A stretch of 64,000 nucleotides of DNA from Planctomycetota bacterium. Lineage in GTDB: Bacteria > Planctomycetota > UBA8108 > UBA1146. Both the position numbers and the translations under genes were made by a program. Where the stretch lies: contig PAIH01000044.1 of the NCBI GenBank assembly GCA_002711105.1, positions 33,658 through 97,657 on the forward strand, in the 5' to 3' direction. The notes beneath the pieces are model-generated. The model ran no database searches. It was not told where the DNA came from and saw only the letters and a program-made list of their open reading frames with translations. Positions 1,717 to 26,800 of this stretch are shown piece after piece; positions within the stretch are counted from its first letter, which is position 1; every line of letters starts with the position of its first letter.

Positions 1717-2505
1717 TCATTCCAGAGGCTTCACACCCTCTCTTAGCCCTTCGATGGAAAGCTGAATGACATAACTGGCAAGTTGGTCGACCTCCTCAGG
1801 TTTGAGCACCTGGAGGGGCATCTTTGCCTGGGCATTGTCAAAAGTGGGCTGCTTCAGGTACCCATGTAACCACTGTGACATTTTGCGAAGTAGATCCGGT
1901 TCTTTTTCGATGGCGAGAAATTGTTCCTTCCTTGCCTCGTAACGATTGGGATCCTCCTTACGCATCATCTCCAGGTGATTCGTGAACAATTTCATGCGCT
2001 CAAGACGGCGTACCGACACCTGGATGAGTGGTGGTTGTAACACTCCCCCACGGCCATCTATCTTGTGACAAAGGATGCAGCGCTTCTTGGCCACCAAGTG
2101 ACCCAGTTTCGCCCTTCGCTGAAAGTCCGGCTCTTGCAACAGGGATAGATCCGGAAGGCCCTGCTGGAGCTGAGAGGGCTCCTTAGAAGTTGCCTGATTC
2201 GCATCGTCAAGCTGCCCATCATCGCCCTTGATCACGACCACGGGGTCTTTCCTGTCTGAAATCCCCTGCTTAGCAGAAGGCTCAGCTACATGCCCGGTAG
2301 ATTTCACGGGCTGCTCGATCACCGATTCAGGATTCGGTTCACTGGAAACTTGTTTCAGAGGCTGACTTGTATTGGCAGCGCTCCTGCCGTCACCACAGGA
2401 GGCGATGACGAGCCACGGCAGTGATAGCAAAACAGGGACAACCCTCCTGATGAAAACCCCCGCCCGAGGCTGTATTGGAGTTCCACCTGGGGCAATCTGC
2501 CGCAT
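1717..2505 (-). CDS. Mono-heme c-type cytochrome domain protein, probable lipoprotein
   Basis: CXXCH motif 'CILCHKIDGRGG'. The N-terminal signal has a lipobox-like 'LVIASCG'. Confidence 0.75.
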   Translation of the reverse strand: MRQIAPGGTPIQPRAGVFIRRVVPVLLSLPWLVIASCGDGRSAANTSQPLKQVSSEPNPESVIEQPVKSTGHVAEPSAKQGISDRKDPVVVIKGDDGQLDDANQATSKEPSQLQQGLPDLSLLQEPDFQRRAKLGHLVAKKRCILCHKIDGRGGVLQPPLIQVSVRRLERMKLFTNHLEMMRKEDPNRYEARKEQFLAIEKEPDLLRKMSQWLHGYLKQPTFDNAQAKMPLQVLKPEEVDQLASYVIQLSIEGLREGVKPLE

Positions 2506-2620
2506 CTTTCCTTCCTCTCCTTATCTGAGCCTAGTCCCCCGAGCCTATGGTGCAAGGTCATCGCTATCCTCTCCCACGATTCCGGTGGCAGTGATACGAT
2601 GCAAGCAGAGGAGGTGACTC

Positions 2621-3685
2621 ATGCTTTCTGTAGGATTGACTCTGATACTAGCCAGTTTCTTGCCAGTATCGGCTCCCTTCGATCTCGACGGTGAAATGAA
2701 GAGGGTTGAGGCGCTGGAAGCCCTTTTTGAAATCGAGGTAGACAAGAGCAATCAACGCTCCGCTGCAGAGCAATTCGAACCACGGTTCGAGACTCTCGCC
2801 AAGGAACTCTCCGGAACGGAAAGCGGTCTTCGTGCCGAGTTGTGGATCCTTAGAAACCACTGGTGGAAACGTTCGGCTGGAACGATGGAACAGGCGGCAA
2901 ACAAACAAGCCCAGCGTTTGATCGCTGAATATCCCGGATCACCTCAGCTCAGCAGTATCGCGGAGTTCAGATATCTCTATGGTCGTGAAAATGTCATTCC
3001 CCTCATGGATGCTTTGATCGCGGCCAGCCCCCATAACAGTGTCGATGCCTGGGCCATCCACGCAAAAATTTTTACTCTACGCCGCAGTAGAGATGAGAAA
3101 GCTCCCATCCAGTTGCGAAAAAATCTGGAATTGCTGCAAGATCGATACGCTGAGGTCCCGTTCCGAGATACCACCTTCGGAGTTCTCGCAACAGCGATGC
3201 TCTCTCCTCATCAAAAGGAAGATCTTGAGATTGGCAAAGTGGCTCCAGAAATCGAAGGCATCGATGTCGATGGGACTAAATTCCGGCTCTCCGACTACCG
3301 GGGGAAGATCGTACTGCTTGATTTCTGGGGTGACTGGTGAGGACCATGTCGGGCGATGTACCCACACGAGCGGTCGCTCGTGCAAAAATATAACGAACAC
3401 TTCGCAATAGTCGGCGTGAACTCAGATCGGGGTACGGATCGCCTCAAGGAAGCGATGGCACGCGAAAAAATCACGTGGAGTTCCTTTTATGACGGAGGAG
3501 GAACCGGAGGCCCCATCGCCTCTCGCTGGGGAGTTTCTGGCTGGCCAACACTATTCCTGCTCGACACCAAAGGCACCATCCGGCACAAAGGACTGCGTGG
3601 AGAAAAACTGGAAAATGCCATCAGAGAACTTTTACTGGAGATGGATGTAGAACTGCCCCCCGATCCACAAAAGAAGGAATCGTAA
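2621..3685 (+). CDS. TlpA/ResA-like thiol:disulfide oxidoreductase with in-frame UGA (putative selenocysteine) in a W-U-G-P-C active site; 354 aa if read through
   Basis: ORFs 2621-3340 and 3356-3685 are in the same frame and are joined by TGA (3338-3340) plus GGA CCA TGT CGG GCG. The joined product reads 'KIVLLDFWGDW-U-GPCRAMYPHERSLVQKY...VGVNSD...GWPTLFLLD', a thioredoxin-fold redoxin. Confidence 0.7.
3365..3382 (+). promoter_or_regulatory. Candidate bacterial SECIS minihelix
   Basis: A perfect 7-bp stem (CACGAGC / GCUCGUG) with a GGUC loop. The loop starts 31 nt after the UGA. Confidence 0.55.
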
Positions 3686-3706
3686 CAACACGCCACTCAC
3701 AAAAAT

Positions 3707-4450
3707 CTATCCCTGGGGCTTTTCTCTGCGGCGAATTGCGCGGTCGCGACGAACGAGACGAATCAAAGCGGAAAGCATCTTCATTCCATCCAGGATAGGG
3801 CTGACCGAACTGCTGCCGCCATCAGACCAGACGATGGGGATCTCTTCGATGACCAATCCCTGTCTACGCGCGGCCAGCAAAAGTTCAATGTCAAATGCAA
3901 ATCCCTCTTCCTGTAACTGATCGAAAATCGGAAGCAATTTCTCTCGCCGAAACATCTTGCAACCACACTGAGTATCTTTGACTGGCAGAGTCGTTGATAA
4001 ATGGACGACTTTCCGGAACAGAGCTCCAAGAATCACTCGCAAAATACCCTGCTGTACAGTGATCCTGGAACCATCTATGTGACGAGAACCACAGACCAGG
4101 TCAGCACCGGCATCGACAGCCTTCAAAAGAGCCGGAAGCATCTCTGGTGATGCGGAAAGATCAACATCTAGATAAGCAACCCTGTCTCCGCGTGCCGAAA
4201 GTACACCACGTCGAACGGCAGCCCCTTTGCCACGATGCCGATCGAGACATTCAAAGCGAAGTCGATCTTCTTGTTCGAGCCAGGGTGCCATGAAGGAAGT
4301 AGGGTCATCTGTACAACCGTCCGATACGATGATCAGTTCTCCACCATTCTCCTCTTCCAGGAACTCCAGAACCGTTTTGATCGTCTTCTTGAGTAGAGGA
4401 ACACCGTTACGAACCGGTATCACCACCGAGAGCACCGCTTCTCCTCTCAT
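3707..4450 (-). CDS. Family 2 glycosyltransferase (polyprenol/dolichol-phosphate hexosyltransferase-like)
   Basis: 'LSVVIPVRNG', 'IIVSDGCTDD' and 'YLDVDLS' are typical GT-A/GT2 motifs. Confidence 0.8.
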   Translation of the reverse strand: MRGEAVLSVVIPVRNGVPLLKKTIKTVLEFLEEENGGELIIVSDGCTDDPTSFMAPWLEQEDRLRFECLDRHRGKGAAVRRGVLSARGDRVAYLDVDLSASPEMLPALLKAVDAGADLVCGSRHIDGSRITVQQGILRVILGALFRKVVHLSTTLPVKDTQCGCKMFRREKLLPIFDQLQEEGFAFDIELLLAARRQGLVIEEIPIVWSDGGSSSVSPILDGMKMLSALIRLVRRDRAIRRREKPQG

Positions 4451-7639: not shown

Positions 7640-8299
7640 ATGCTTTCACTATTGTTGACAGTCGCCATCGGGGTGGTAACGCCCGTTGAGGATCCCATTC
7701 CTGCGACTGAAGCCTATCCCTTAGACATCTGTGCGGTGGCAGGTAAGAAACTGGGATCGATGGGAAAACCGATCGATTTCGTCCATGAGGGACGTCAAGT
7801 TCGATTCTGCTGCAGAGGTTGCGTACCAAAGTTCAAAGCAAACCCAGATCAGTATCTCGCGGAAGTTGACAAAAAAATCATCGCGGCTCAGAAGAAAAAC
7901 TACCCCGTCGACTATTGCTTACTCTCGAACGAAAAACTTGATGAGGACGCCAAGGAAGTCGTCATCAAAAACCGCCTTGTTCGCCTCTGCTGTGGAGGGT
8001 GTGCCAAGAAGATCAAAAAGAACCCAGAGCCAACCTTCACCCAGCTCGATTCTGCGATCAAGAAGAAGCAAGGCAAAAGCTACCCACTCACCACATGTGT
8101 CATCACCGGAAAAGATCTGGGTGGCACGGCCAAGGACATAATCGTAGGGAACACCCTGATCAAGGTCTGCTGCAAGGGATGCATCTCCAAGGTCGCAGCA
8201 AATCCCTCCAAGTACATCCAAATGGTAGGGGCCGACAAGAAAGCCGGTGCCAAGGACAAAAAGAAGGCCAAGGCGAAAAAACCCGTAACAGCTGGGTAA
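7640..8299 (+). CDS. Secreted protein with three ~60-aa Cys-rich repeats (TRASH/YHS-like C-x23-25-CC-x2-C) and a Lys-rich tail
   Basis: Three copies of 'YP(L/V)xxCxxxxxxL...(R/K)(F/L/V)CCxGCxxKxxxNP'. AAGGAAG RBS upstream. Signal-like N-terminus. Confidence 0.7.
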   Translation: MLSLLLTVAIGVVTPVEDPIPATEAYPLDICAVAGKKLGSMGKPIDFVHEGRQVRFCCRGCVPKFKANPDQYLAEVDKKIIAAQKKNYPVDYCLLSNEKLDEDAKEVVIKNRLVRLCCGGCAKKIKKNPEPTFTQLDSAIKKKQGKSYPLTTCVITGKDLGGTAKDIIVGNTLIKVCCKGCISKVAANPSKYIQMVGADKKAGAKDKKKAKAKKPVTAG

Positions 8300-9092: not shown

Positions 9093-12000
9093 TTACGGAC
9101 ATCCTCCATAAGTTTCGCAATCAAGACCATCCCCAGGAGTCATGTCGATTCCGCAGGTAATCGGTCCCGGAGCCGGTGGAGGGCCACCGTTCTGGAACTG
9201 GTAGTTCAGCACATAGATGATATCCGATATGTCATGCAAGCCATCGTCATTGGCATCTATTGCATCCGTGCAACCCGATGCAGGACCGCCAAGCATGAGG
9301 CTGTAAAGCATGAAGATCGCATCTGCAATATCCACACTTCCGTCGTCATTAGCATCACCACGGCGGAAACTCGGCTCACACTCATCCGGTAATCCATTTG
9401 CATTGGTATCAAGGCTCTCGCCACTTAGCAGATCACATGCATCTGGTACACCGTTATCATTGCAATCGGGACTAGTGCCGGTAGAAACGTCGCACACATC
9501 TGGTGTCCCGTTCTCGTCACAGTCGGGATCACACTCGTCAGGCGTTCCGTTCCCATCACAATCGGCAGAGGAACCTTCTGCGATATCACAGACATCTGGA
9601 TTTCCATTGCCGTTACAGTCATCTTGCGGAACAACAATCGTCACCGTCTGTTCGACAACCGTCGTGTTACCGTGATTATCAGTAGCGGTCCACTGTAGAA
9701 TCGTACTTCCATGATCATAGGTACCGCTCGCATCGTCCGTTCCATTGAGATCGTTGTATAGATCCACTACCACGCAGTTGTCGCTGGCATTCGGAGTCGG
9801 AATATTGAGTGTTGCAGTACAAGTACCCTCTGGAGCAGGAATCGTCAGATTTCCACTTGTCGTGATGGTCGGGGATTCATTATCAGAAACCGAAACCAGG
9901 AACTGAGCTGAAACTACGTTTCCGTTCGCATCTGACTGCGAGTAACTCACCGTAGTTGTTCCTACCGGGAAGAACTCGCCAGGCTGATGGCTGGTTATCA
10001 GTTCGCCAAGATCGCAGTTATCGGTGGCAGTTGGCGGATTCCAGTTAACACTAGCGCCACACACACCTGGATCGGTCAGCTGTGACAAATCACCCGGTAT
10101 ACCTTCAAGAACTGGATCTTCACTGTCAATTACAGTCACGATGAAGGTGTGCTGACTGAGGTTTCCATGCGCATCAGACAAGGACATGGTCACAAATGTA
10201 GTTCCGACGTTGAAGAATTCTCCTGGCTCATGGCTTGTTGTCAGGTTTGTCGTTCCACAGTTATCACTGACCTGTGCCGGTTCCCAAGTTGCGGTGGCAC
10301 CACAATCTCCAAGTCCTGACGCCATCGTCATACTTTCTGGCGCCAGGTCGAAGCTTGGTGCCTGATCATCACTCACGGTTATCGTGAACGAAGCTGTGGT
10401 CTCATTTCTTGAATCATCTGTAACGGTATAAGATACCGTAGTTGTACCAACAGGGAAAAACTCACCGGCTGAATGGGTGCTGGTAGTGCTGCTGGCTGGG
10501 CAGTTGTCTGCACTTGACGGCTCGGGCCAGCTAACTGTTGCCCCACACAAATCTGGCTCACTGGTAATCGAAATATCATCTGGCATGCCAAACAACTGAG
10601 GTGCTTCCATGTCAGTGACAGAAATCGAGAACTGGTGGCTTGCAGAGTTACCGTTAATATCTTGCAACGTCATCGTGACGACCGTCGTGCCAACGGGGAA
10701 CTGCATGCCAGACGGATAATCAGATCCGAGAGAAAGCACACCGCAGTTGTCACTGGTCTGCGGTGCATCCCAGACTGCGGTAGCAACACATTGTGCCGCA
10801 TTTGTATCGAGCTCCATGTCTCCAGGACTGGTAACAAAGCTAGGGGCTTCATCATCTGAGATGGAAATCTCAAAGGAACTGCTGACTGTAAGACCGTTTA
10901 TATCGGTGGCTGTGTACGTCACCGTTGTGTTACCCACCGAGAAGAAACTTCCTGACGGGTGACTGGTGAAGAGACTTGGACTCGGGCAGTTATCAGTGGT
11001 AGTGGGCGCGGTCCATTCGATGACCGCTCCACAAGCACCTGAATCGGCAGTCTGAGTGACCGAGGCAGGCATATCGTGAATCTGGGGTGCCTGCTCGTCT
11101 GTCACCGTAATACCAAATTCGTGGACCGTCGCCTGACCGTGAATGTCGGCTACAGTCATCGACACCGTGGTAGTTCCCAGCTGGAAGAAATCTCCCGACT
11201 GATGGCTGGAAGTCAGAGATTGAACCGCGCAGTTATCAGAAGTAACTGGGGCCTCCCAGCTCGCCGTTGAACCACACAGATCAGGATCAGTCCCTAGCTG
11301 CTGTGATTGCGGAGAGCTTTCAAACAACGGCGCTTCGTCATCTGTCACGGTAATCGTGAAGGAACCCAGTACTGTATTGTCGCTGGTATCTTCTACTGTG
11401 TATGTGACAAGAGTTTCTCCGACATCAAAGAAATCTCCTGGTTGATGGGTGCTGCTCAGGAGCTCTCCAGCGCAATTGTCTGTAGTAGTCGGAGGCGACC
11501 ACGTTACGCCAGCTCCACAAAGTCCAAGATCAGCAGTCTGGTTAATTCTTCCAGGCATATTGACCAGCTGTGGATTCTCGACGTCACTTACCGTCACGGA
11601 AAATGTATGGGTCGTGACGTTGTTATGGACGTCAGTCAAAGTCAACAGAACATCAGTTGTGCCTGTCGAGAAGAAATCGCCACTATTGTGTGACGTCTCG
11701 ATGGAAAGAACTCCACAGTTATCACTTGTGTTAGGTGCTTCCCAGCTAGCCTGGGCTCCGCACTGACCAGGATCTGAACCCATGGCCATACTTTCAGGAG
11801 CAGTGAGAAACTCTGGGTTTTGATCGTCAAGGACCGTTACCGTGAATGAATCTGCAGTCGTATGACCACTCAGATCTGTACTCGTGTAGGTAACAGTAGT
11901 ATCGCCCATTGCCAACAAGCTACCGCTGGCAATATCTGATCCGAAGGAAGTGACTCCGCAGTTGTCTGCTGAAGTGGGCTCCTCCCAGGTTGCAGTTGCT

Positions 12001-14399
12001 CCACAAACATCAGCATCATTGGTGAGTGTGAAGGAAGAAGGCATACCTGAGATTGTCGGATTTTCGTCATCCGTAACCGTAATTGTGAAAGATGCGGTGG
12101 CCAGGTTCCCTGACAAATCTTCGGCAGTGAACGAGACCTCTGCAGTTCCTACCGGGAATTGAGAACCAGAAAGATGTGACGCACTGACCAGTGGCGGAGG
12201 ACTGCAATTGTCGGTAGCCGCCGGGGTAATCCAGCTCACCGCTGTTGAGCAACTACCCGGATCTGCACTCGCCAGGATATTTTCAGGCACATTCAAGAAC
12301 TCAGGCGGTGTCGGGTCGACGGTGCCTGGATCTTCACACTCGTCCAGAACGCCATTGGTGTTGCAGTCGATCGAAGATCCTGCTGTCAACTGGCACTCAT
12401 CGGGTACCCCATTGCTGTCGCAATCGACCGTCAATCCCTGGTCAATGTCACAGGAATCGATCTGATCATTACCATTACAATCGAGTATCGGTGTGCTAAC
12501 CAGTTCACAAGCGTCAGGAATACCGTCTCCGTCGCAATCTGAGTCTCCGCCGGAGATCTGGCACACATCTAGCTGACCATCACTATCGCAATCAGGAGAA
12601 CCAGACAAAATTTCGCAGCCATCTGGAATACCATTCAGATCGCAATCGGTTTCCAGGCCAGTAGCGATATCGCAACTGTCAGGAACGCTGTTGGAATTGC
12701 AATCTTCGGTTCCTGCCAACAGATCGCAATCATCGGGAGTACCATTTTCATTGCAATCAGTCTCACAGTCATCGGGGAGTGCGTTCGAGTTGCAATCTCC
12801 GCTACTTCCCGAACTAATATCACAACTATCTGGGACTCCGTTATTGTTGCAATCGGGTGTACCCGTCAGAAGATTGCAGGTATCCGGAATTCCATCGCCG
12901 TCACAATCCAAGGAGGAGCCAGAGGTAATATCACAGAGATCTGGAACTCCATTACCATTGCAATCGAGCTTGGCACCGCTGGTAAGTTCACAACGGTCAT
13001 CCAAACCATTTCCGTCACAGTCCGGAGCATCTTCCGTATGGGTCATGAAAACTGCGGGAAAACCCGAAGCTACAACTCCTGCCCAATTACCATTTGTCGT
13101 GACCTGTGAACCATATCGATCACCATTGAGGGTGGTGACAGGTCGTAACGAATCTCTCAGCTCCCAACCCGTGCCAAGGCGACGGTACAGGTGGGCGGAT
13201 CCTTGTGAAGAATCTACATTTGGCTCGCCAACCAGCATTTGCTCTTCAGAGACCGCCAGAGATGTTCCATACCGATTAGTTTCAGGATGAGTACTCATCG
13301 TCTTGTCAACTTGTGTCCAAGTGGCCGCAGTTCGGTCGAAGGTATACACGGCTCCTACCGGACCCGCTCCAGCGGGACCGCCCAGGGCACCAGTAGCAGA
13401 GATCACGAGAGTTTCTCCTGTAGCCGCCAGGTTGGTTCCAAAACCAAGGTTCTGGATGCTGTCTATTGCCGACAGGCTCCCCTGCAATATCCAGATTCCT
13501 CCAAGATCGAGGTACATATGGACTCGTCCTGATCCAGCGGCAAATCCAGGAGCTCCGACAAAAGCCCAGCCACCCTCTGCCAGGGCAACCGAACCACCAG
13601 TCTCCTCACCACCACCCGGATTGAAGGGCGCTGTTTCGGTGAGATGCGCTGTCCGCTCCCAACCGGTACCGGTCTGGGACCAAACATCGGCGTATCCGGA
13701 AGGCTGTATCTGATCGGGATTGTTGGGATTTTCTGGTATCAACTGCGGCGCACCTACGATGATGTCAGACCCCAGCACTGCTACTGATCTACCGTACTCA
13801 TCACTTGGAGACGGTGTTTCGGCCATCAGTTTTGCAACCTGCATCCATCCCAGTTGAGTACGCGCAAAAACATAGGCAGCTCCTCTGGTCGCATCGCTGA
13901 GGGGTGCCCCTACAACGGCGATATCGCCGTCGATGGCCAAGGAACTTCCAAAGCCATCTTCGAATTCTTCATCCAGGGGAACCAACAGGCTACTGTTGAG
14001 CCACATGTTGCTCTGACGCTGATAAACTTCTACCAACCGTACAGCAGGAGGATCTAACGGATCAGGAACATCATCAGGGGCAAGTGGCTCAAACGGATCC
14101 GCCACGAGCAAGGTATCTCCCGACATAGCGATCACGCTCGAGAAACTACCAAACAACGAGTTCACCGGGATCGGCTCGCATACGTCCAAAATCCCGTTCA
14201 AATTACAATCCGCTAACGGATCGGCTGCACTTTCACACTCATCGGGAATCCCGTTACTGTTGCAATCTGAGCTGAACCCTGTAGCGATATCGCCAGCATC
14301 AATTTGGCCGTTGCTATTACAATCAGGAGTCTGCGCTTCGAGCGCAACCGGACCGACAAAAACTGTGAAGGCCAATACGGCCGAAAAGATAATACGCAT
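9093..14399 (-). CDS. Giant secreted modular protein P1 (~1768 aa): DCN repeats, FG-GAP propeller, DCN repeats, ~11 HYR domains, DCN repeats, dockerin-like C-terminal module
   Basis: One uninterrupted ORF. The track start at 14465 is TTG. The ATG at 14399 gives the signal peptide 'MRIIFSAVLAFTVFVGPVALEAQ'. Confidence 0.9.
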   Translation of the reverse strand: MRIIFSAVLAFTVFVGPVALEAQTPDCNSNGQIDAGDIATGFSSDCNSNGIPDECESAADPLADCNLNGILDVCEPIPVNSLFGSFSSVIAMSGDTLLVADPFEPLAPDDVPDPLDPPAVRLVEVYQRQSNMWLNSSLLVPLDEEFEDGFGSSLAIDGDIAVVGAPLSDATRGAAYVFARTQLGWMQVAKLMAETPSPSDEYGRSVAVLGSDIIVGAPQLIPENPNNPDQIQPSGYADVWSQTGTGWERTAHLTETAPFNPGGGEETGGSVALAEGGWAFVGAPGFAAGSGRVHMYLDLGGIWILQGSLSAIDSIQNLGFGTNLAATGETLVISATGALGGPAGAGPVGAVYTFDRTAATWTQVDKTMSTHPETNRYGTSLAVSEEQMLVGEPNVDSSQGSAHLYRRLGTGWELRDSLRPVTTLNGDRYGSQVTTNGNWAGVVASGFPAVFMTHTEDAPDCDGNGLDDRCELTSGAKLDCNGNGVPDLCDITSGSSLDCDGDGIPDTCNLLTGTPDCNNNGVPDSCDISSGSSGDCNSNALPDDCETDCNENGTPDDCDLLAGTEDCNSNSVPDSCDIATGLETDCDLNGIPDGCEILSGSPDCDSDGQLDVCQISGGDSDCDGDGIPDACELVSTPILDCNGNDQIDSCDIDQGLTVDCDSNGVPDECQLTAGSSIDCNTNGVLDECEDPGTVDPTPPEFLNVPENILASADPGSCSTAVSWITPAATDNCSPPPLVSASHLSGSQFPVGTAEVSFTAEDLSGNLATASFTITVTDDENPTISGMPSSFTLTNDADVCGATATWEEPTSADNCGVTSFGSDIASGSLLAMGDTTVTYTSTDLSGHTTADSFTVTVLDDQNPEFLTAPESMAMGSDPGQCGAQASWEAPNTSDNCGVLSIETSHNSGDFFSTGTTDVLLTLTDVHNNVTTHTFSVTVSDVENPQLVNMPGRINQTADLGLCGAGVTWSPPTTTDNCAGELLSSTHQPGDFFDVGETLVTYTVEDTSDNTVLGSFTITVTDDEAPLFESSPQSQQLGTDPDLCGSTASWEAPVTSDNCAVQSLTSSHQSGDFFQLGTTTVSMTVADIHGQATVHEFGITVTDEQAPQIHDMPASVTQTADSGACGAVIEWTAPTTTDNCPSPSLFTSHPSGSFFSVGNTTVTYTATDINGLTVSSSFEISISDDEAPSFVTSPGDMELDTNAAQCVATAVWDAPQTSDNCGVLSLGSDYPSGMQFPVGTTVVTMTLQDINGNSASHQFSISVTDMEAPQLFGMPDDISITSEPDLCGATVSWPEPSSADNCPASSTTSTHSAGEFFPVGTTTVSYTVTDDSRNETTASFTITVSDDQAPSFDLAPESMTMASGLGDCGATATWEPAQVSDNCGTTNLTTSHEPGEFFNVGTTFVTMSLSDAHGNLSQHTFIVTVIDSEDPVLEGIPGDLSQLTDPGVCGASVNWNPPTATDNCDLGELITSHQPGEFFPVGTTTVSYSQSDANGNVVSAQFLVSVSDNESPTITTSGNLTIPAPEGTCTATLNIPTPNASDNCVVVDLYNDLNGTDDASGTYDHGSTILQWTATDNHGNTTVVEQTVTIVVPQDDCNGNGNPDVCDIAEGSSADCDGNGTPDECDPDCDENGTPDVCDVSTGTSPDCNDNGVPDACDLLSGESLDTNANGLPDECEPSFRRGDANDDGSVDIADAIFMLYSLMLGGPASGCTDAIDANDDGLHDISDIIYVLNYQFQNGGPPPAPGPITCGIDMTPGDGLDCETYGGCP
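9096..9374 (-). other. Dockerin-like C-terminal module of P1, ending in ...CETYGGCP
   Basis: Two EF-hand-type loops, 'DANDDGSVDIAD' and 'DANDDGLHDISD', each followed by a hydrophobic helix. Then a Pro-rich linker and a Cys-rich tail. Confidence 0.7.
9640..12310 (-). repeat. HYR (hyalin repeat, Ig-like) domain array of P1, ~11 units of ~83 aa
   Basis: Recurrent 'D.E.P.i...P.d......(C)G A.v.W..P...DNC......sh..G..F.vGtT.VtYt..D..GN......F.vtV.D'. Confidence 0.8.
12310..13040 (-). repeat. DCNxNGxPDxC repeat array of P1 (~13 units of 18-19 aa)
   Basis: For example 'DCDGNGLDDRCE...DCNGNGVPDLCD...DCDGDGIPDTCN...'. Confidence 0.8.
13040..14170 (-). other. FG-GAP / integrin-alpha-like 7-blade beta-propeller of P1
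   Basis: Seven '(F/Y)G.s.a..g....vGAP......G..y.f' blades, e.g. 'GFGSSLAIDGDIAVVGAPLSDATRGAAYVF'. Confidence 0.7.
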
Positions 14400-14830
14400 G
14401 GGAATCCCACCCACTCCCTTTCCGATCGGAGATCCGATCCAGGGGCAATGCCGAATATTCGGCAAAATCCTTCGATAATCGAAAGCGATAACCCCGTACC
14501 CATTTCATTGCTGAGGAGCGAACTGACATAAATAGTCTGTGAAAGGTCGAAATAGCGGCCTTTCCACCAGGATCTGACGATCCACACCTCTAGTGATAAT
14601 CATCACATTTTCAAACTCTTTGCTTTTATACAGGTATGGGCATGTTAACAAAAGCAGAAAAACACCAGATCAACTAACCAAAGAGATATTTATAGTCTTT
14701 TTAGCTATGGGGTTATAGAAAATGCACTGAGAATTAAAAGCCGAATGTATTCAACATAAATAAAGTAACAAAGATAGACAGATCGCTAACATACGAGGTA
14801 ATACTCTGAGAAATAGGGGTAAACAAAACT

Positions 14831-14885: not shown

Positions 14886-17800
14886 TTATGGGCAAGCGTT
14901 GTAGAGCGCGCACCCCAGGCCATCAGAATCGGTCGGATCCACTCCACAACTATCGAAAGGTGGTGGAGGTGGACTCGTACCGTTGAACTGGAAACCGAGG
15001 ATGCTGATCACGTCAGAAACGTCGACAGTGCCATCGTCATTGGCATCTGCTGCGTCGTCGCAACTAGGATCGAGTCCTCCAGCAAAGAGGTTCACCAACA
15101 AGAAGACACCATCTGCAATGTTGACGATGCCATCGCCATTGCCATCACCTCTATAGAAGTTTACCTGACAAGAATCGGGGATTCCGTCACCATCGAGATC
15201 AGTGGCGGCTCCGCTCACCAAATCACATGCATCCGGGATTCCATTACTGTTGCAATCGTCAGCGATACCCTCAGAAATCTCGCACAAATCTGGAATGCTA
15301 TTCACATTGCAATCAGACAGTGTCCCATCAAGAAGATCGCAACTGTCTGGCACTTCGTTCTCATTACAATCATTGGCAACACCAGTAGAGATCTCGCAAC
15401 TATCTGGAACACCTGTACCGTTACAATCTTGCTCGACACCCAGATCGATTTCACAGCTGTCAATATCACCATCAAGATCACAATCAGCCCATGTGCCAGA
15501 AGCGATATCACAGGAGTCGGGAACACCATTCAAGTTGCAATCATTGGCAGTTCCAGTGAAGACTTCGCAGCTATCTGGCACTCCAGTGCCATCGCAATCA
15601 TCCTCTAGCCCGCTGGCAAGGTCGCAAGCGTCTGGGATTCCGTTGTTATTGCAATCAGCCACTTGGCCGTTACCAACGTCGCAGTTGTCAGGCACACCGT
15701 TTCCGTCACAATCGGAAGTACCATTACTGATGTCACAGGAATCGGGAATACCGTTGCTGTTGCAATCCGGAACGGCACCGGTTGAAACCTCGCAACTATC
15801 AGGAACCCCTGAGCTATTGCAATCTTCAGCGACACCATCTATCAAATCGCACGAATCTGGAATCCCGTTGCTATTGCAGTCAGGAGCAGCACCACTGGAA
15901 ATCTCACAGCTATCCGGCACTCCATTGGCGTCGCAATCAGAAGCAGTACCAGCTTCCAAATCACAGACATCGAGTGTTCCGTTAGCGTTGCAATCAGAAG
16001 AAACACCTGTCGCCAGGTCACATGTATCAAGTACCTGATTCTGGTTACAGTCAGTGTCCTGTCCTGTTGCGAGATCGCAATCGTCGAGGATCCCGTTAGA
16101 GTTACAATCCACTTCAGTGCCTGAAATCAACTCACAGGAATCAATGACTCCATCCAAATCGCAGTCTGTCGCACTACCTGCCGAAATCTGGCAGCTATCG
16201 ACAAACCCATCGAAATCGCAATCCAGTTCAACTCCTGATTCGATATCACAGCTATCAGGCTGGCCATTAGCATTGCAATCGAGGACTACCCCGGCGGATA
16301 TCTCACAAGAATCTGGAATTCCGCTCAGGTCGCAGTCTGTTTCAGTGCCCGAGGCAATTTCGCAACCGTCTAAGATTCCATCGCTGTCACAGTCCGCCTC
16401 TGTTCCATTGTTGATTTCGCAACTATCCGGCAGACCATCTTCATCGCAGTCAAGAGAACTACCTTGTTCGATTTCGCAATCGTTAGGTATCCCATCTCCG
16501 TCGCAATCTGGCTGACACTCATCAGGCACACCGTCCAAATTACAATCGAGACTGTTGCCTTCGACGATGTCGCAGACGTCAGGATTGTTATTGTTATTGC
16601 AGTCTGGAGAATCAATCAGAACGGTAACGATTCCAGCTGTGAATGACAAATTCCCGTTGGTATCGGTTGCAGTCCAGTTGATTAACGTATTTCCGCGAGG
16701 GTAGAAACCGGAAGCATTCGCAGTACCGTTGAAGTCATTTACGACTGTCACCTCTCCGCATGCATCAGTTGTTTCCAGTTCTGGAACCTCTACTAAAGCA
16801 CCGCATTCTCCCGCTGGAGCAGTTACAGTTAATGGCAGGGGTGGTGTGATCGTTGCACTTTCATCATCAATAACTGTGACATTGAAAGATTCGGACACAC
16901 TGTTTCCACTGATATCTATAGCAACGTATGTAACGAGAGTGGTTCCTACAGTGAAGAAGGATCCGGAATCATGACTCGACTCAAAACTTGCCAAACCACA
17001 ACCATCTATGCCTGTGGGTTCAAGCCAAGTAATACTCGCACCACAAATCCCAGCTTGTGTCGTGTAGGTAAGATCTGTCGGCAATCCCACTATCTGAGGA
17101 TCTTCATCATCTAGCACTGTAATTTGGAAAGAAGACGTGACTTGATTATCTGAACTGTCAGTGGCCACCACAATGACTGTTGTAGTTCCCACTCCATATT
17201 CCATTCCGGAATAGAAACTTGTCACAAGCTGGGCAACTTCACAATTGTCTGTAGCAGTTGGGAATTCCCAGTTCACTGCAGCAGCGCAATGTCCCGGGGG
17301 TGCAGTGACGATTTGATCCTCGGGTATTGAGGTGATGATCGGAAGTTCTGTATCCAGAACCGTGACCACGAAGCCAGAGGTCGTATCATTCCCAGAAGTA
17401 TCAGATGCGGTGTAGACGACTTCAGTAGCTCCTGCAGGGAAGAACTCACCCGAGCTGTGAGTTGAACTGAATGTAACCGTACCACAGGCATCCTCGATGG
17501 TCGGATCTTCCCAGGTCACCACGGCTCCACATTGGGAACTCGTGTTGTCGAGCTCGATGAAAGCTGGCAAACCGGAGATCTCCGGACCTTGAACATCAGC
17601 TACGTCGATATCGAATGAGTAAACGGCTTCGTTACCTGAGGTATCCGATACCAGATAGCTCACAGTGGTTACACCTACCGGGAAGAAATCTCCACTAGAG
17701 TGTGTTTGTGTAACTTCAGCTACTTCACAGTTATCGATGGATTCAGGTGCTCCCCATGTTGCAACAGCACCGCATTGGTCTTGAGCAGAACCAATTTCTA

Positions 17801-20800
17801 TTATCGACGGCAATCCGTGTAGAACTGGAGGCTCAAGATCCTCGACGGTCACCTGGAACGAACTATCAAAAGTGTTCCCGTGAGTATCGGTGGCGATATA
17901 GGTAACTGTCGTGCTTCCAAGGACAAAGAAACTGCTATTCTCGACATCTGATGTCAGGTTACCAACACCACAGTTGTCTGTAGCAGATGGTGAAATCCAC
18001 GAAACGTCTGTCCCGCAACTACCAGGATCATTGGAAACTACCATGTCAGCAGGCATTCCACTGATCTGAGGCGGCTCTTGATCACTAACCGTCACCATGA
18101 AAGCAACGGTTGTTATTAAATCGGCAGTGTCAGAAGCACTGTATGTGACAACAGTGTCTCCAATCGGGAACACGTCGCCAGGAACATGTGTAGACATGGT
18201 ATTGAAAACCGCACAGTTGTCAGTAAATGTAGGCAGTTCCCAGTCAACGATTGCAGTGCATTCGCCGATGTCCGTATTTGCCTCGATTATTTGAGGAAGA
18301 CCATCAATCTGGGGAACTTCTGTATCCAGTACGGTAACACTGAAAGTAACTTCAGCTGTATTTCCACTGGAATCAGTAGCTATGTAGGTGATCGAAGTTA
18401 CTCCGACCTCGAACAAATCTCCTGAAAGGTAGTTTGAATCCAAAATTTCCACTGTGCAGTTATCAGAAGCCACGGGTTCTTCCCACGAAACCAGAGCACC
18501 GCAAACGGACAGGTCATTTTCGACCGTGATGTCCAGGGGTGTCGAAGTTACAAGAGGAACTTCTGCATCCGTAACAGTTATGAAGAAGCTATGCGTGGAG
18601 ATATTACCGCTCAAGTCAGTAGCCAGTGTAGCCACTTCGGTGACTCCGACCGGGAACCGATCTCCACTGACATGGGTACTTTCGATCGATTCAACTCCAC
18701 AGTTATCAGTAGCAGATATCTCACTCCAGTCGACCGCGGCATCGCAAAGTCCAGCTTCACTGATCACCTGAATATCCGTCGGCGGGGCGATGAACTCGGG
18801 GAATTCAGAATCAACAACCGTCACATCGAAACCGGTGATTAAGATATTCCCGTTCACATCTATCGCGGTGTAAGTCACGGTAGTTACACCTGGGGTCATG
18901 AAAGTTCCGGAGGAGAAATCAGAGGTCAGGGATTCTACTCCGCAGTTGTCTACTGCAAATGGAAGATTCCATGTGACTAGCGACCCACAAATTCCTGGAT
19001 TGGTAACCGCGCCGAAATCAGTTGGTAGACCTATGATCGTCGGAATCTGTATGTCGGTCACCGTGACCAAGAAATCGAACTCTATCATATTCCCTGATGC
19101 ATCGATTGCCACCAAAGACACCACGGTATCACCAGAGGGGAAAACATCTCCGCTTGTATGGGTACTTGTGAAAGAAATCAATTCGCAATTGTCTTCTGCT
19201 AAAGGTGCATCCCATTCGGCGACCGCTGTGCACTCGTTGTTGGCCGTGTTCACAAGAACTCTATCAGGAATGTTCGAGATCACGGGCAACTCATCATCGA
19301 TCACTGTCACGGTGAATTCTGCAGTGTTCACAAGCCCTGCAGTATCTTCCGTTGTGTAGGTAACAGTAGTATTGCCGAGTTCAAACACATGCCCGGTCTG
19401 AATATCAGAACCGAGGCTCACGATCGAGCAGTTATCGGTAGCAGAAGGCTCTGGCCATTCAAATCCAGCAGAGCAAGTCCCTGGGAATATCGAGAGGACC
19501 ACGTCGACAGGCATGTCGTGAATCACTGGCACTTCTTCGTCCAGCACATCAACGGTGAAACTTGCCGTAGTGACATGACCTGCATTATCAGTAGCGGTGT
19601 ATGTAACCGTCGTCGATCCAACGATTAAGAAATCTCCAGGCTGCTGGGTACTTTCCACCGTAGAAATCTGACAATTATCGGTGACCGTTGGGGGTATCCA
19701 ATCGAATGTGGACCCACACTGTCCCGCTTGCGCAGAGAGCGAGACGTCAGCTGGCATATCAGCGATGGTCGGTGCTTCTGTATCCGTGACTGTTACTACG
19801 AATGAACTACTCGTCGAATTACCACTTGGATCCCCAACTGTGTAGGTCACCACGGTATTACCGACTTCAAACAATGTGCCACTCTGGATATCCGAGGAAA
19901 GCCCAACAATCTGACAGTTGTCAGCGGCTGTCGGCTCGACCCAATTGATGAGTGCTCCACAAACTCCTTCATCAGATTCTGTCGATATATTCTCCGGTAG
20001 ACCCAGAATCGAAGGGGCCTCATTATCGACGACAATCACGTTGAAGGTACTTATCGAGGTGTTTTCATTCACATCAGTAACGGTGATTTCGACCGTCGTG
20101 GTTCCTAGCTCAAAAAGATCACCAGGTTGGTGACTTGAGCTGTGCTCGAACACTCCGCAGTTATCACTGGATTCCTCTGAAACCCAGTTCACAACCGCAC
20201 TGCACAATCCAGGATCCGTATCGATCTGTATGTCGGCAGATACGCCAGAGATTTCTGGAAGTTCGTCATCGATCACGGTAACGACAAACTGCTGTTCGGT
20301 GATGTTTCCGGCCAGATCCTGAGCAGTGAATACCACTGTGGTTTCGCCGACAGGGAACAGATCGCCGGTGGTGTGAGTCTGTTGGAATACATCGACTTCG
20401 CAGTTATCAGTAACTTCAGGAGCGGACCATTCATGTGCTGCACCACAAACGCCTGAATCAGTCGAAAGTGTGACGTCTACTGGTACTGCATTGATCACTG
20501 GCTGTTCGTCATCCTCGACGAGGATCGTGAAACTAGCGCCAGTTTCATTCTCTGCCGTATCGATTGCTGTGTAGCTGACCGTTGTACTGCCGACATTGAA
20601 GAAGTCACCAGGCTGATGAGTACTCAATATCTGATCAACGGTGCAGTTATCGGTGATGGTTGGTGGTGTCCAATCAAAAGTGGACCCACATACACCTGAC
20701 TCGACGTTGAGCACAACATCGGAAGGCATATCAGAAATCACCGGAGCTTCATCTTCAGAAACGAAGATAAGGAAAGAATCCGAATGAGAATTGCCACTGG

Positions 20801-23800
20801 GGTCCTGCACGGAGTAGGTCACAACGGTAGGACCAACCTCGAAGAATGTCCCATTCGCAATGTCGGAGGTAAACTCAATCGCCTCGCAGTTATCGCTCGG
20901 GTTAGGTTCTGTCCAGGTAACTACCGCTCCGCATGAACCCAAATCGGTTCCGATGGTGAGGTCGTCTGGCATGTTGAGCAACTGTGGATTTTCATCATCT
21001 ATCACAGTAACTGTGAAGGATGCAGTGCTCACATTTCCGCTCGGATCAGTTACGCTGATCTCCACGGTAGTCAACCCAAGATCAAACGCGTCGCCGGGCA
21101 TTTTTGAAGAAACGTGTTCTTCTATCCAGCAATTGTCGCTAGAGGTTTCCTGGATCCAATCGACCACAGCTGTACAAAGACCCGGATCGGTAAAGACCTG
21201 GATATCTTCTGAGACGCCCGCTATCACCGGGAACTGATCATCAATCACGGTGACATTGAAAGTCTCTTCGTGAGTATTACCGCTGGTATCGGTGGCTACA
21301 TATCGAACTTCAGTCACACCCACAACAAAGTAAGTGTCCGAGGCGTAGTTGGAAGCCAAGATTTCCCCGGCGCAATTGTCTGACGTTGTCGGAGGAATCC
21401 ATGAAGCGACAGATTTGCATTCACCGACCTCGACAATTATCGTGATGTCTTCTGGAATGTCGAACAGCTGTGGATCTTCCATATCCGCAACCGTGACAGT
21501 GAACTGCTCTGTATGAGAATTCCCATGAATATCTACAGTATTTGCAGTAACCAGATACTCACCCTTGTCGAGGAAAGTACCATTTTCCAGGTCCAGATTT
21601 AGACTATCGACAGCGCAGTTATCAGTTGCGCTTGGCTCTTGCCAGCTGACAACAGCTCCGCAGATTCCTGGTTCCGTAGCCACCGTGAAATCTGTGGGAA
21701 CGCTACTGAATACAGGCGCCTCATCATCGGTAACGGTTACTGTAAAACTGGATTCCGCTGGATTCCCACTCGGATCAGATACCGAGTAAGTGACAACCGT
21801 TGATCCAACCTCAAAGAATGAACCGCTAGCAAGGTCTGGAGAGAGTGCAAGTTGCTGACAATTGTCAGTCGCTGTCGGCTCTGTCCACTCGGCAATGGCT
21901 CCGCAGATACCTTCTATTGCAGAAAGCGTGATGTCATCGGGAGTTCCTGCAATAACTGGAGATTCTTGATCAAGAACAACGATCGAGAAAGTGGCTGCAG
22001 ACTGATTGCCATGTATGTCAGAACCCTCAAGGAATACCGTACTGGTTCCCAGAGCAAAGACGTCTCCGGGTTGATGACTGATCGAGTAGTCCAGAAGCTC
22101 GCAGTTATCAGTGGGAACCGGAGGAACCCATTCAACTTGTGCAGTACAAGTTCCAGGATCACAACTCACGGTAATTACATCAGGTAATCCGTTGAAGACT
22201 GGGCCTTCCAGATCATTGACCGTGATCGTGAACTGATCGCTAACAACGTTTCCAGTTGGATCCTGAGCGGTGTAGATGACTGTTGTTTGGCCCAGAGGGA
22301 AAATATCACCAGGTTGATGATTGGAAACGAGCGCGTTGACCTCACAGTTATCGAACGTTTCCGGCAGATCCCAGAGGTGGGCTGCTCCGCAAACTCCGGG
22401 GTCATTTTCCAGTACCACATCTGCCGGCATGACCAAAATCTGTGGGCTTTCAAGATCAGCGACCTGGACCGTGAAACTATCTTCAGCTGACTGCCCTGCG
22501 TTATCTGTCACCAAATAGGTGACTGTCGTAAGTCCTTGAGGGAAGAAGTCGCCAGGCTGATGACTTGCAATGACTTCTGCAATCCCGCAGTTATCCAGGA
22601 AAGCCGGCACGTCCCAATCATGGCTCGAACCACATACACCAGGCTCAGCTCCTATGATGACATCCACGAGAACACCATCGATTGCGGGCCCTTGCGTATC
22701 GTCGATCGTGACAAGGAAGCTCTCTTCCTTGAGGTTACCACTCGTATCGGAAACAGAATAAGTCACAACGGTAGTTCCAACTTCGAAGAAGAAACCACTA
22801 GCGAAATTGGAACTGAGGCCAAGATCCTGGCAGTTGTCACTTGAGGTAGGTTCTTCCCACGTGGCTATTGCACCACAAAGAGAAGGCTCCGCTTCCAACG
22901 CGATATCTGCAGGCAAATCGCTGATCACAGGAAGTTCGGAATCCACAACCGTAACCGTGAAGCTGGCGGTTGCTATATTTCCACTGCCATCAATAGCGGT
23001 GTAAATCACTTCGGTAGAACCAACAGGGAATTCTGTCCCGCTGAGCTGACTCGTGTCCAGACTCAATATTCCAGAGCAATCACTCGCAGTAGGTTCAGTC
23101 CAGGTAGCTACTCCCAAACAGGATCCAGGACTGGAGTCGACCTGAACAACTGCTGGAAGATCTACGATTTGCGGTTGTTCCTGGTCCAGCACCGTAACCA
23201 CGAATGTATCAGTACTAGAATTCCCACTCGGGTCGATGGCGGTGTAGGTGACCAGGGTATCTCCGATGGAGAAAGGTCCACCATTCACAACGTCACTGGA
23301 AATTTCGTGAGAAACACAATCCGTTGCCGTGGGTTCGATCCAAGAAACAATAGCTTCACAGGATCCTTCTGGTGCAACGACCTCAAGATCTTGCGACATT
23401 TCCTGAATCACTGGAGCTTCCACATCTTCGACGGTAACAGCGAAACTCGCAGTGCCGATATTTCCACTCGTATCCTCAACGGTATATGTCACTACTGTGT
23501 TTCCGATCGCGAACGTCGATCCATTTGCGATGTCGGAGCTGAGCAGTAGTACCTGGCAATTATCGGTTGAAGTCGGGTCTTCCCAGACCACGGCCGCTGT
23601 ACAAATTCCAGTCTCATTGGCTACGCTAATATCAGCTGGCATGCCCAGAATCAGCGGAGCTTCAACGTCGATAACCAGTACCGTGAAATTAGCAGTCGAA
23701 ACGTTTCCGCTGCCATCGGTGGCGGTGTAAATCACTTCGGTAGAACCAACAGGGAATTCGGTCCCGTTCGGTTGGCTCGGGTCCAGACTCACTATCCCGG

Positions 23801-26800
23801 AGCAATCATTCGCAGTAGGTTCGGTCCAGGTTGCTACTCCAAGACAGGATCCCGGACTGGAGTCGACCTGAACAACTGTTGTGAGATCTACGATTTGCGG
23901 CTGTTCCTGGTCCAGCACCGAAATCGCAAAGGTCTCGGTTCTGATATTGCCACTCGGATCGGTGGCGGTGTAGGTGACCAGGGTTTCTCCAATGGCGAAA
24001 GAGCCACCATTCACGGCATCGCTGGAAATCTCGTAAGAGACGCAATCCGTAGCAGTGGGTTCCGTCCAGGAAACTAGAGTTTCGCAGAAACCTTCAGGTG
24101 CCACTGTCTCGATGTCCGCAGGCATCAGCGAGATCACAGGGGCTTCCACATCTTCAATGGTCACGGTGAAACTCGCCGTGCCATTATTGCCACTCGGATC
24201 TGAAACCGAATATGTCACCTGCGTAGTACCCAGTGGGAATATCGATCCACTGACTATGTCTGAAGACAGCTGCAGTGCCTGGCAATTATCAGAAGTGGTC
24301 GGCTGCTCCCAGGTCACTGTAGCACCGCAAACTGCAGGATCACTACCCTGAGTGATGTCAGCCGGCATACCCAGAATCATCGGGCTTTCATCGTCGATCA
24401 CCGTCACCGTAAAGGAATCGGAAACCGAATTCCCACTCAAATCAGTAACAACAATGTCGACGATTGTCGTGCCCAGTTCAAATACATCCTGTGGTTGCAT
24501 ACTCGAAGCGTGCTCGAGTATCCCGCAGTTGTCGCTAGAGGTTTCTTGAGCCCAGTCAACCGTGGCGGTACACAGACCAAAATCAGTACTGACCTGGAAG
24601 TCGGCAGGAACATCGTGGATCACGGGGAACTCTTCATCGAGTACCGTGACCGTGAAACTCTCTGTCTGAATGTTGCCTGTCGGATCTTGTGCCGTGTAGG
24701 CAATGTTGTTGACTCCGACCGGGAACGAATCTCCCGATTGAAAATTCGACATGAAAGAAAGAACTATGCAATTATCAGAAACCTCAGGGCTCACCCACTC
24801 ATGCTCGGCACTGCACGTTCCTGGATTTGCAACCAAAGTCATATCAGTAGGCAAGGCGGTGATAACTGGCAATTCGAGATCAACAACTGTGATCTCGAAG
24901 GATTCCGTAGAAACAAGTCCATTAGTATCACTGACGGTAAATGTCACAATCGTGGTTCCTACTTCGAATACGGAACCACTGGCATGATCTGATTCAATTT
25001 CAAGAGCTTGGCAATTGTCTGTTGCGGAAGGTTCATCCCAAATCACTGTAGCACCACACTGACCAGCTTCGTTCTGTACCAAACGGTCTTGCGGTAAAGA
25101 TGAAATCAGAGGAGCTTCTTCATCGAGAACTCGAACGATGAAACTAACAGCAGTTTCATTTTCATGGACATCTGTTGCTAGCAGAGTCACGACAGTATCT
25201 CCAACTTGGAATTCTTGCCCTGATTCGTGGCTCAAAATGGTGTCAGACATTCCACAGTTATCGGTAACGACTGGAGAATCCCAGGTGACGATAGAACTAC
25301 AAAGTCCTGCTGAGTTGGAACTCAACACTATTTCTTGAAGTCCGGTGAAAATCGGCCCTTCAGTATCTGTGACCGTGACCGAGAAGCTGGAAGAGTTTTC
25401 GTTACCAGCTGAATCGACCACGCTGTATGTCACCACGGTAGTTCCTACGGCGAAGAAAGATCCACTCGGTATATCTGAACCCAGTCCAGAAGCTGAACAG
25501 TTATCAGCATATATCGGTTCGGTCCAGGTAACGATCGCACCGCAAACACCTTCTTCAGTCGAGGTGGCTATATCGTCAGAAACACCAAAGACCTGTGGCA
25601 GTTCTTGATCTAAAACTCTGATGGTGAAACTAGCCGCTGTTTCATTACCGTGAATGTCTGTGGCCAGGAGATCGACCGCTGTATCCCCGAGGGCGAAAAT
25701 CTCTCCAGACTGATGACTGGAAGTAATTGTATCGACACCGCAATTGTCAGATACCTGCGGCTGATCCCAGCTCACGGTGGCTCCGCAAACCCCTGGGTCA
25801 CTATCAACAACAAGGAGATTTTGCAGCCCGACAAATTCAGGGTCCTCATCATCAGTAATCGAAATTGAGAAACTAGCTTCGCTCTCGTTTCCACTGGGAT
25901 CACTGACTGAGTAAGTAACTATGGTAGTTCCAACACTGTAGAAGGAACCATTCGGAATATCGGATCCAAAACCAACTATTTGACAGTTGTCAGTAGCAAC
26001 CGGTTCATCCCAGGTGATTGTTGCTCCGCATTGACCGGCGTCGATGCTTACTGCGATATTTGAAGGGACTCCAGAAAGCACAGGTTCCTGATCATCAAGG
26101 ACCGTTACCGTAAAGGAAGCAGACGCTTGATTACCATGTAAGTCCTCTGTGGAAATTTCTACGGTAGTGACTCCAGTTGTGAAGGAACTGCCAGATGCGT
26201 GAGTGATATCGAAGGTTGCAATTCCACAGTTGTCCTGTGAATCGGGGGCAATCCATTCAACAACAGTTGAACATTCATCTTGATCAGCAAAAATCACGGC
26301 GTTATCAGGGATCCGAATGATCTCAGGCGTTTCAGAATCTATCACCGTAATCAAAAATTGATCCGTGACTACGATTCCGGCCGAGTCCTCAACCGTGTAA
26401 CTAACCTCTGTAGTTCCAACCGAGAAAGAATCGCCTGGTTGGTGACTTGCTGCGAAGGAAACAACCTCACAGTTGTCGGAAGGAACCGGTTGAGTCCAAT
26501 CATTGGTGGCCGAGCATAGTCCAGCTTCCGCGGGGATCGTACGATCCGCCGGCATACCGTTTATTTTTGGATCCTCTTCATCATCTACGGTAATTTCGAT
26601 ACTGGCAATCGTGGTCTGACCTATCCCATCAAACACTACAAAATCGACGGTGGTGGTTCCAATCGGGAAGTACGCACCGGATTGATGTGAAACATCGAAA
26701 TCTGTGAGATTGCAATTATCCCAAGGGATCGGATCGTCCCATTCGACATTGGCACCACATTGCCCTTCGTCATTAGTTACGCTAATTGACAGTGGCATAT

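Follow-up and report, generated by a model that had tools for sequence, protein, structure and literature searches.

Results

Gene structure and the read-through frame

The stretch analysed here, called the window throughout, is 64,000 nt of contig PAIH01000044.1 from a Planctomycetota bacterium (assembly GCA_002711105.1), and its subject is a pair of open reading frames (ORFs), 2621–3340 and 3356–3685, which very probably form one gene for a selenocysteine (Sec)-containing protein of the TlpA-like thioredoxin fold. The TGA at 3338–3340 closes the first ORF (239 aa), after which the frame stays open to the TAA at 3683–3685. The second ORF (109 aa) is the C-terminal part of the 2621 frame with an internal Met taken as its start. 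An earlier note on this DNA had reported that the two ORFs share a frame and that TGA and five sense codons lie between them, which is exact. Read through, the frame gives a peptide of 354 residues, ...GKIVLLDFWGDW-[UGA]-GPCRAMYPHERSLVQKYNEHFAIVGVNSD...GWPTLFLLD..., and around the Sec position the product reads ...LDFWGDW-U-GPCRAMYPHERSLV.... Upstream of the gene a cytochrome c gene with a CXXCH motif is read in the opposite direction, at the place given for it in the earlier note. The features of the locus are collected in Table 1.

Table 1. Features of the locus in window coordinates
Feature	Position	Strand	Basis
Divergent 262-aa mono-haem cytochrome c (C-I-L-C-H) with a lipoprotein-like N-terminus	1717..2505	-	Pfam Cytochrom_C 5e-06; 115-bp shared intergenic region
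Shine-Dalgarno-like GGAGGTG, 4 nt 5' of ATG 2621	2610..2616	+	Read off the sequence; putative function
Predicted complete selenoprotein gene, 354 sense codons (codon 240 = UGA/Sec) and TAA	2621..3685	+	Open frame on read-through; orthologues split at the same codon; downstream dN/dS 0.07-0.12
Hydrophobic, signal-peptide-like N-terminus, residues 1-21 (MLSVGLTLILASFLPVSAP)	2621..2683	+	Sequence inspection; orthologue N-termini similar; low pLDDT (predicted local distance difference test)
All-alpha helical-repeat domain, residues ~22-195	2684..3205	+	AlphaFold, nine helices
TlpA-like thioredoxin fold, residues 204-329, spanning the UGA	3230..3607	+	Pfam; closest PDB chains
UGA, predicted Sec codon U240, nucleophilic position of W-U-G-P-C	3338..3340	+	Opposite the first Cys of WCxPC in alignments with ResA/DsbE structures and 69 Cys homologues
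Five codons G-P-C-R-A from the UGA to the first downstream ATG, including resolving Cys243 (TGT 3347-3349)	3341..3355	+	
Candidate selenocysteine insertion sequence (SECIS) hairpin: stem 3365-3371 / 3376-3382, loop GGUC 3372-3375; conserved core = inner 6 bp (3366-3371 / 3376-3381)	3365..3382	+	
cis-Proline codon, P309 in G-W-P-T	3545..3547	+	Invariant against 24 full-length Cys homologues; aligned with the G-x-P-T loop of DsbE/ResA

TGA is the normal stop codon in 8 of the 25 window genes and thus the genetic code has not been reassigned. A mechanical search of the window for other selenoprotein genes with in-frame TGA gave 70 candidates, and a redox motif or coding support was present only at 3338. 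Scanning of 2400–3800 for sigma-70 promoters and terminators revealed no promoter and no terminator on the + strand.

Conservation of the UGA codon and translation downstream of it

The 13 closest database homologues (41–100% identity, 239–258 aa) all terminate at ...DFWG(D/H)W. More remote homologues run to full length, with C-x-P-C-R-A-M-Y-P-H-E-R-S-L-V after this point; Cys stands at the UGA-equivalent codon in 69 homologues. At the DNA level we compared the window gene with 16 related genes, taken from contigs of metagenome-assembled genomes (MAGs; L001–L004 and L006) and from metagenome contigs (L081–L091). TGA is present at the Sec codon in 17 of 17 genes (the window gene included), and the labels of the TGA-carrying related loci include Phycisphaerales, Gemmataceae and Deltaproteobacteria. 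Where the contigs are long enough (13 of the 16 related genes), 109–124 conserved codons follow from TGA to the next stop. Metagenome contigs were also scanned with a degenerate pattern that accepts TGA, TGC or TGT followed by any codons for W-x-x-P-C-x-x-M-Y-P-H-E-R-S-L-V. Among the matches listed, which come from soils, oceans and sediments, 139 of 139 carry TGA; Cys forms with the W-x-x-P-C...HERSLV peptide are to be taken as rare among matches, not as absent. Alignment with homologues, suggested in the earlier note as a check, therefore gives TGA in orthologues and relatives and Cys in more distant full-length homologues, i.e. a Sec/Cys pair. As findings that would speak against a selenoprotein, the same note had named close homologues that end or shift frame at this position and a codon that turns out to be TGG; the close homologues do neither and the codon is TGA.

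The part of the gene downstream of TGA is under purifying selection. Compared with close orthologues dN/dS 3' of TGA is 0.07–0.12 at dS of at least 1, a constraint equal to that of the upstream part (L002 was left out because an indel invalidates the ungapped comparison). These data bear on the possibility that the stop is a pseudogene mutation or a sequencing or assembly error, by which the first Cys codon of a TlpA-like gene, TGC or TGT, became TGA. A lone in-frame stop in one sequence does resemble a fresh nonsense mutation, and the orthologues are publicly annotated as truncated hypothetical proteins. However, the TGA recurs in all 17 genes and in all 139 matches listed, the downstream codons are constrained at this synonymous distance, and some contigs carry two or three tandem copies in which every copy has the TGA and the hairpin described below. 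A base-calling artefact shared across independent platforms and samples is implausible. Conservation data refute this explanation, and the probability that we leave to it is practically nil.

A second possibility is that translation stops at UGA, giving a 239-aa helical protein, and that a separate 109-aa piece is made from ATG 3356. It is exactly what gene callers predict. In addition, TGAGGA holds a weak GAGG 13 nt 5' of ATG 3356, and partial termination at UGA is expected even in genuine selenoprotein genes. The 15 nt from TGA to ATG speak against it. They occur as 72 distinct sequences across relatives, GPCRA being encoded by 31 and PPCRA by 19 of them. Since the spacer varies synonymously while the peptide is kept, 3341–3355 is translated and the UGA must be read through; initiation at 3356 cannot explain the peptide conservation of these five codons. 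Among the 140 TGA forms that were counted, 37 continue with CCN after TGA and so have no GAGG. Moreover, a product of 109 aa would have to do without strand 1, without the first redox residue and without any export signal, and the Pfam and PDB alignments need both sides of the UGA. We consider two separate products exceedingly improbable.

The hairpin downstream of the UGA

The 7-bp hairpin CACGAGC-GGUC-GCUCGUG that the earlier note had placed at 3365–3382, with its loop 31 nt after the UGA, lies precisely there. It starts 24 nt past the UGA, and the 31 nt are counted from the A of UGA to the first loop base. In the published model of bacterial SECIS (bSECIS) elements the apical loop has 3–9 nt and the upper stem 4–16 bp (PMC13188914, Fig. 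2A legend), a G is found in the first two loop positions, usually as G[G|U]N, the distance from UGA to loop is 16–37 nt, and the minimum free energy is -7.5 kcal/mol or lower (PMC13188914). The window hairpin agrees with the model on all four counts: it has a 4-nt loop on a 6–7 bp stem, its loop begins GGU, the spacing is 31 nt, and the hairpin alone has -11.6 kcal/mol.

Its conservation is nearly complete. The sequence CACGAGCGGTCGCTCGT is found in 138 of the 139 matches listed. The sole exception, contig L098, reads CACGAACGGTCGTTCGTG: both partners of one pair are changed, G-C to A-U, at the cost of a Leu-to-Phe replacement in the protein. Over the codons CAC GAG CGG TCG CTC the entropy of the third position is 0–0.07 bits in 129 distinct sequences, as against ~1–1.9 bits in most flanking codons. 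The consensus structure consists of a 6-bp stem and the GGUC loop, and a basal seventh C-G pair is present in 112 of the 139 matches listed. The alignment used for the structure and for the compensatory pair (A2) was picked by a regular expression that requires the hairpin; it is invariant by construction and was used for these two purposes only. Several contigs carry tandem TGA-form redoxin genes, each with the same hairpin, at three sites in L166 and at two each in L127 and L136.

Homologues with Cys in place of Sec show what the protein alone demands of this region. Cys forms at the genome loci are unusable as a control, 0 of the 94 Cys-form sites in L001–L091 encoding the hexapeptide HERSLV, and two other Cys forms, P0013 and P0015, were used instead. 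HERSLV is encoded by 12 of the 69 Cys homologues. In P0015 (L213, 10001–11818) it is written CAC-GAG-CGC-TCG-CTA-GTG, with two synonymous changes by which the loop becomes GCUC and one stem pair is lost. The same peptide is thus made without the hairpin, which is not dictated by the protein sequence. In the redoxin domain, Cys forms with HERSLV show 70–79% identity to some Sec form, more than the window protein has to most Sec forms (median 62%). As identity to Sec forms drops, the hexapeptide drifts (HNRELI, HEREVV etc.). The third-position pattern, the compensatory pair and the Cys control together indicate that the hairpin is under selection at the RNA level beyond the constraint from the protein. 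The SECIS may have frozen the hexapeptide HERSLV in the protein, with repeated switches between Sec and Cys and decay of the hairpin after loss of the UGA.

Sec-decoding machinery and the case for selenocysteine

Family members stand beside genes for Sec decoding on three contigs. In L183 a TGA-form gene lies ~400 bp from tRNA-Sec (anticodon TCA), which is followed by selD, a HEAT-repeat gene, selA (PF03841, 3e-125) and selB with SelB winged-helix domains; selD itself has an in-frame UGA (SSCAG-U-ASK). In L156 the gene is ~0.9 kb from tRNA-Sec, and in L142 it is ~55 bp from selB. The SelD and SelB probes were E. coli sequences that may contain errors, and matches were accepted only after confirmation by Pfam. 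By a rough estimate, based on the 56 of 142 sites that have at least 900 nt of upstream flank, three adjacencies to sel or tRNA-Sec genes are far above chance for single-copy genes. The layout of the Sec operon in L183 (1927–7795) is unusual, having a HEAT/Armadillo-repeat gene between selD and selA and a TGA-form redoxin gene divergent just upstream.

Several observations weigh against selenocysteine at this codon. The 64-kb window holds no tRNA-Sec, selA, selB or selD according to a tRNA scan, which gave zero tRNA genes, and a Pfam scan of 20 ORFs. Complete Sec machinery is on record for planctomycetes (PMC4807772), which speaks for Sec, and the Sec capability of the window's own organism is presumed from its relatives. 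Folding of 63 nt of the single sequence is no better than that of shuffled sequences (z = -0.69), so that the case for a hairpin that is not due to chance rests on comparative data and not on energy. The stem hardly varies, and covariation is therefore minimal, with one compensatory event. Rfam yields no family for the hairpin, either in the whole window at the gathering threshold or in 3300–3430 at E up to 10; a match to ClpQY_promoter was dismissed as chance. Finally, P0013, a Cys form with TGC (L212, 4001–4999), keeps the exact hairpin, which can therefore persist without a UGA. This is consistent with a recent switch from Sec to Cys in P0013. Taken together, the intact "fossil" hairpin of P0013 and the broken one of P0015 form a small natural series of decay after UGA loss.

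Absence of the machinery from the window and the hairpin of P0013 would also suit a read-through that does not involve Sec, in which a near-cognate or suppressor tRNA for Trp or Cys decodes the UGA and the hairpin slows the ribosome or regulates in some other way. Stop codon read-through stimulated by a downstream structure exists in other systems. However, the position is that of the catalytic Cys in a redox motif, a classic Sec/Cys pair, and the GGUC loop, which fdhF of E. coli has as well, conforms to the G[G|U]N form of the published model and stands at a distance from the UGA that the model permits. Three contigs place family members next to tRNA-Sec, selD, selA and selB, and insertion of Cys would not explain why more than 130 lineages have kept the UGA. 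Such Sec-independent read-through is, in our judgement, very improbable. We conclude with high confidence that 2621–3685 is one gene, split by annotation, for a predicted exported selenoprotein of 354 aa whose Sec is encoded by UGA. The earlier note had likewise taken the locus for one 354-aa selenoprotein and not for a pseudogene or two genes, and this is borne out by the conserved TGA, purifying selection downstream of it, the constrained hairpin, its agreement with the bSECIS model and the three sel-linked contigs.

Protein architecture

The read-through product combines a helical N-terminal part with a redoxin domain. The AlphaFold model, which covers the 239-aa N-terminal ORF only, has a mean pLDDT of 86, and residues ~22–195 are mostly above 90. 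For the helical domain no Pfam family was found and a PDB fold search gave nothing at E of 0.001 or less; the best, weak matches are TPR, HAT, BamD and designed helical repeats. Members of the Sec family have between 69 and 442 residues in front of Sec, so the helical domain is one of several N-terminal modules. It probably selects partner proteins.

With U entered as C, three Pfam families match residues 204–329 of the product, across the TGA. AhpC-TSA scores 65.7 bits (cut-off 26; 4.8e-18), Redoxin scores 57.8 bits (cut-off 26.6; 1.4e-15) and Thioredoxin_8 scores 56.2 bits (cut-off 27; 4.6e-15). The nearest PDB chains of the redoxin domain are thiol:disulfide interchange proteins, DsbE, ResA and TlpA. 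The motif W-U-G-P-C occupies residues 239–243, and in ResA and DsbE structures the nucleophilic Cys is aligned with the UGA position. The earlier note had seen here a W-C-x-P-C-type site with UGA at the nucleophilic Cys; the peptide can be read directly from the frame, and both the ResA/DsbE structures and the Cys homologues align there.

The cytochrome c neighbour and the cellular role

Position next to a cytochrome c gene raises the question of whether the protein is a dedicated thiol reductase for apocytochrome c (or for CuA/Sco) of the ResA/CcmG/TlpA type, acting on the product of the divergent gene. A divergent ORF with CxxCH is present at 10 of 10 close orthologue loci, where a mono-haem cytochrome c is kept across a short shared intergenic region, and the best NCBIfam and PDB similarities of the protein are to ResA, TlpA, DsbE and CcmG. 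Against this, such an ORF is found at just 1 of the 46 other Sec-form loci of the wider family. In the close clade more than 15 kb are syntenic (with genes for an ACT-domain protein, a glycosyltransferase, a patatin and a phosphatase), and the adjacency of the cytochrome c gene therefore carries little information. NCBIfam scores are far below the equivalog and subfamily cut-offs: 74.2 against 170 for ResA, 48.8 against 230 for TlpA and 40.9 against 123 for DsbE. This makes the protein a generic TlpA-like redoxin and not ResA, TlpA or DsbE proper. No ccm/ccs and no ccdA/dsbD genes were seen nearby in the Pfam scan of 20 window ORFs.

The pairing which the earlier note had connected with a TlpA/ResA-like role in reducing apocytochrome thiols thus holds in the close clade, whereas the role drawn from it finds little to lean on in the wider Sec family or in the NCBIfam scores. 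We regard a dedicated apocytochrome reductase as conceivable but unlikely, and a functional link to the divergent cytochrome c can only be inferred. It is safer to describe the product as a predicted exported thiol-disulfide reductase with a selenenylsulfide redox centre.

Other features of the window and of related contigs

A compact cluster for haem biosynthesis is recognized by Pfam at 39206–45796 (- strand), comprising a protoporphyrinogen-oxidase-like amine oxidase, hemE (URO-D), hemB (ALAD), hemD, hemC and hemA (GlutR). Giant ORFs on the - strand are located at 9093–14465 (1790 aa), 14886–29687 (4933 aa), 29810–38545 (2911 aa) and 60713–63973 (at least 1086 aa). The last one contains 12 HYR domains, and syntenic giant genes have HYR domains in L081, L083 and L084 and FG-GAP in L081 and L084. 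Their products are probably very large surface proteins, as is typical of Planctomycetota. On the - strand there is also a 1104-aa ORF (57264–60578) with DUF7133, HEAT repeats and a C-terminal cytochrome c domain. On the + strand, ORF 80–685 has no Pfam match and ends in a low-complexity Gly/Asn tail, (GGGNNN)n, and ORF 7640–8299 encodes 219 aa with three Cys-rich repeats and a weak match to TRASH/YHS metal-binding domains, conserved in the syntenic contigs L081, L083 and L084. Among the related contigs, L001 (QNYK01000007.1) has the record title "Bacillota bacterium MAG 7"; its orthologue is 59% identical and the gene order is that of the Planctomycetota contigs, so the label looks doubtful.

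Discussion

From the features of the gene the following course of events can be proposed. The ribosome would arrive at the UGA, codon 240, where SelB carrying Sec-tRNA(Sec) would bind the mRNA hairpin through its 6–7 bp stem and GGUC loop, and the UGA would be decoded as selenocysteine in place of termination. The exported protein would then carry the redox centre U240-G-P-C243. Its selenolate is expected to attack a disulfide in the substrate, and Cys243 would resolve the mixed selenenylsulfide. Binding of SelB, export, the direction of electron flow (i.e. that the protein acts as a reductase) and the nature of the substrate are predictions from sequence and from related proteins.

The SECIS of E. 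coli fdhF has a GGUC apical loop presenting G and U, and its loop is ~18 nt after the UGA. The window hairpin resembles it in being located within the coding region 3' of the UGA and in having the GGUC loop. It differs in spacing, its loop being 31 nt after the UGA as compared to ~18 nt, and in having a perfect helix of 6–7 bp with no bulged U evident.

ResA, CcmG (DsbE) and TlpA are reductases of cytochrome c and CuA maturation, and the window protein is similar to them in fold, in the W-C-x-P-C-type motif, in the cis-Pro loop, in an N-terminal segment resembling an export signal or anchor and in the best matches among solved structures; in the window clade a cytochrome c gene adjoins as well. 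Unlike them, the window protein has Sec in place of Cys and a large extra N-terminal domain. With the family NF041054 ("UGC-containing TlpA disulfide reductase", ResA-like WAxxUGC) it has in common the TlpA-like fold and a Sec in the active site. Membership in this family was rejected: the score is 33.9 bits against a cut-off of 300, and the motif is U-G-P-C, whereas theirs is U-G-C (UxC). No NCBIfam model reaches its cut-off on the window protein.

The protein belongs among the UxxC redoxins. UxxC selenoproteins of Prx-like, Trx-like and TlpA-like folds are known from genomes as well as from the Sargasso Sea and Global Ocean Sampling (GOS) metagenomes, where they rank with the most abundant families of selenoproteins (PMC1088965, PMC1794560, PMC2398784). 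The window protein has U-G-P-C together with a match to PF00578, which places it in the UxxC family as defined in PMC13188914. Its kinship with the published exemplars WP_010940744.1 and MGB1650493.1 is judged by family definition. As in the catalogued members, Sec stands for the first Cys of CxxC in an AhpC-TSA/Redoxin/TlpA-like fold, the bSECIS is just downstream in the coding region, Cys homologues are many, and the genes are abundant in marine and soil metagenomes and routinely misannotated. Unlike those members, the window clade has a 175-residue N-terminal alpha-helical repeat domain that belongs to no Pfam family, and the SECIS of the window family is invariant at the nucleotide level over a wide range of sequences and fixes HERSLV. 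A text search of the BSepDB paper found neither Planctomycetota nor TlpA.

Selenoproteins of this kind have been known for twenty years. The finding does not surprise a specialist and leaves the general knowledge of selenoproteins unchanged. Points of modest interest are the invariant SECIS with its imprint on the protein, the hairpin variants, the repeated linkage to tRNA-Sec and sel genes and the misannotation of the whole family.

In Proteobacteria a link between FdhA and the sel operon is common. The TlpA-like protein might be an "anchor" selenoprotein of Planctomycetota and their relatives in the way that FdhA is in Proteobacteria, an idea which we put forward tentatively and ourselves find rather doubtful. 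It draws on the very wide distribution of the gene in soil and marine metagenomes, on the three contigs where it adjoins tRNA-Sec and/or sel genes, and on a SECIS so constrained that Cys descendants would still carry its hexapeptide as a fossil. If it is true, recognition of SECIS by SelB could be studied in this family as a natural model beyond the classical organisms, and the gene would mark the Sec trait in the phylum.

Conclusions

In the public databases all orthologues found appear as truncated "hypothetical protein" entries, mostly with a separately called ORF of 104–109 aa after them. Reading the locus as one selenoprotein gene corrects a recurring database error, the whole family being systematically split and having no curated annotation model. 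It adds a clean and widespread Sec/Cys pair in a predicted exported redoxin, with a SECIS that is invariant over more than 130 distinct sequences. The natural variants, namely the compensatory stem, the decayed hairpin and the fossil hairpin, could guide experiments on the interaction of SelB with SECIS in Planctomycetota.

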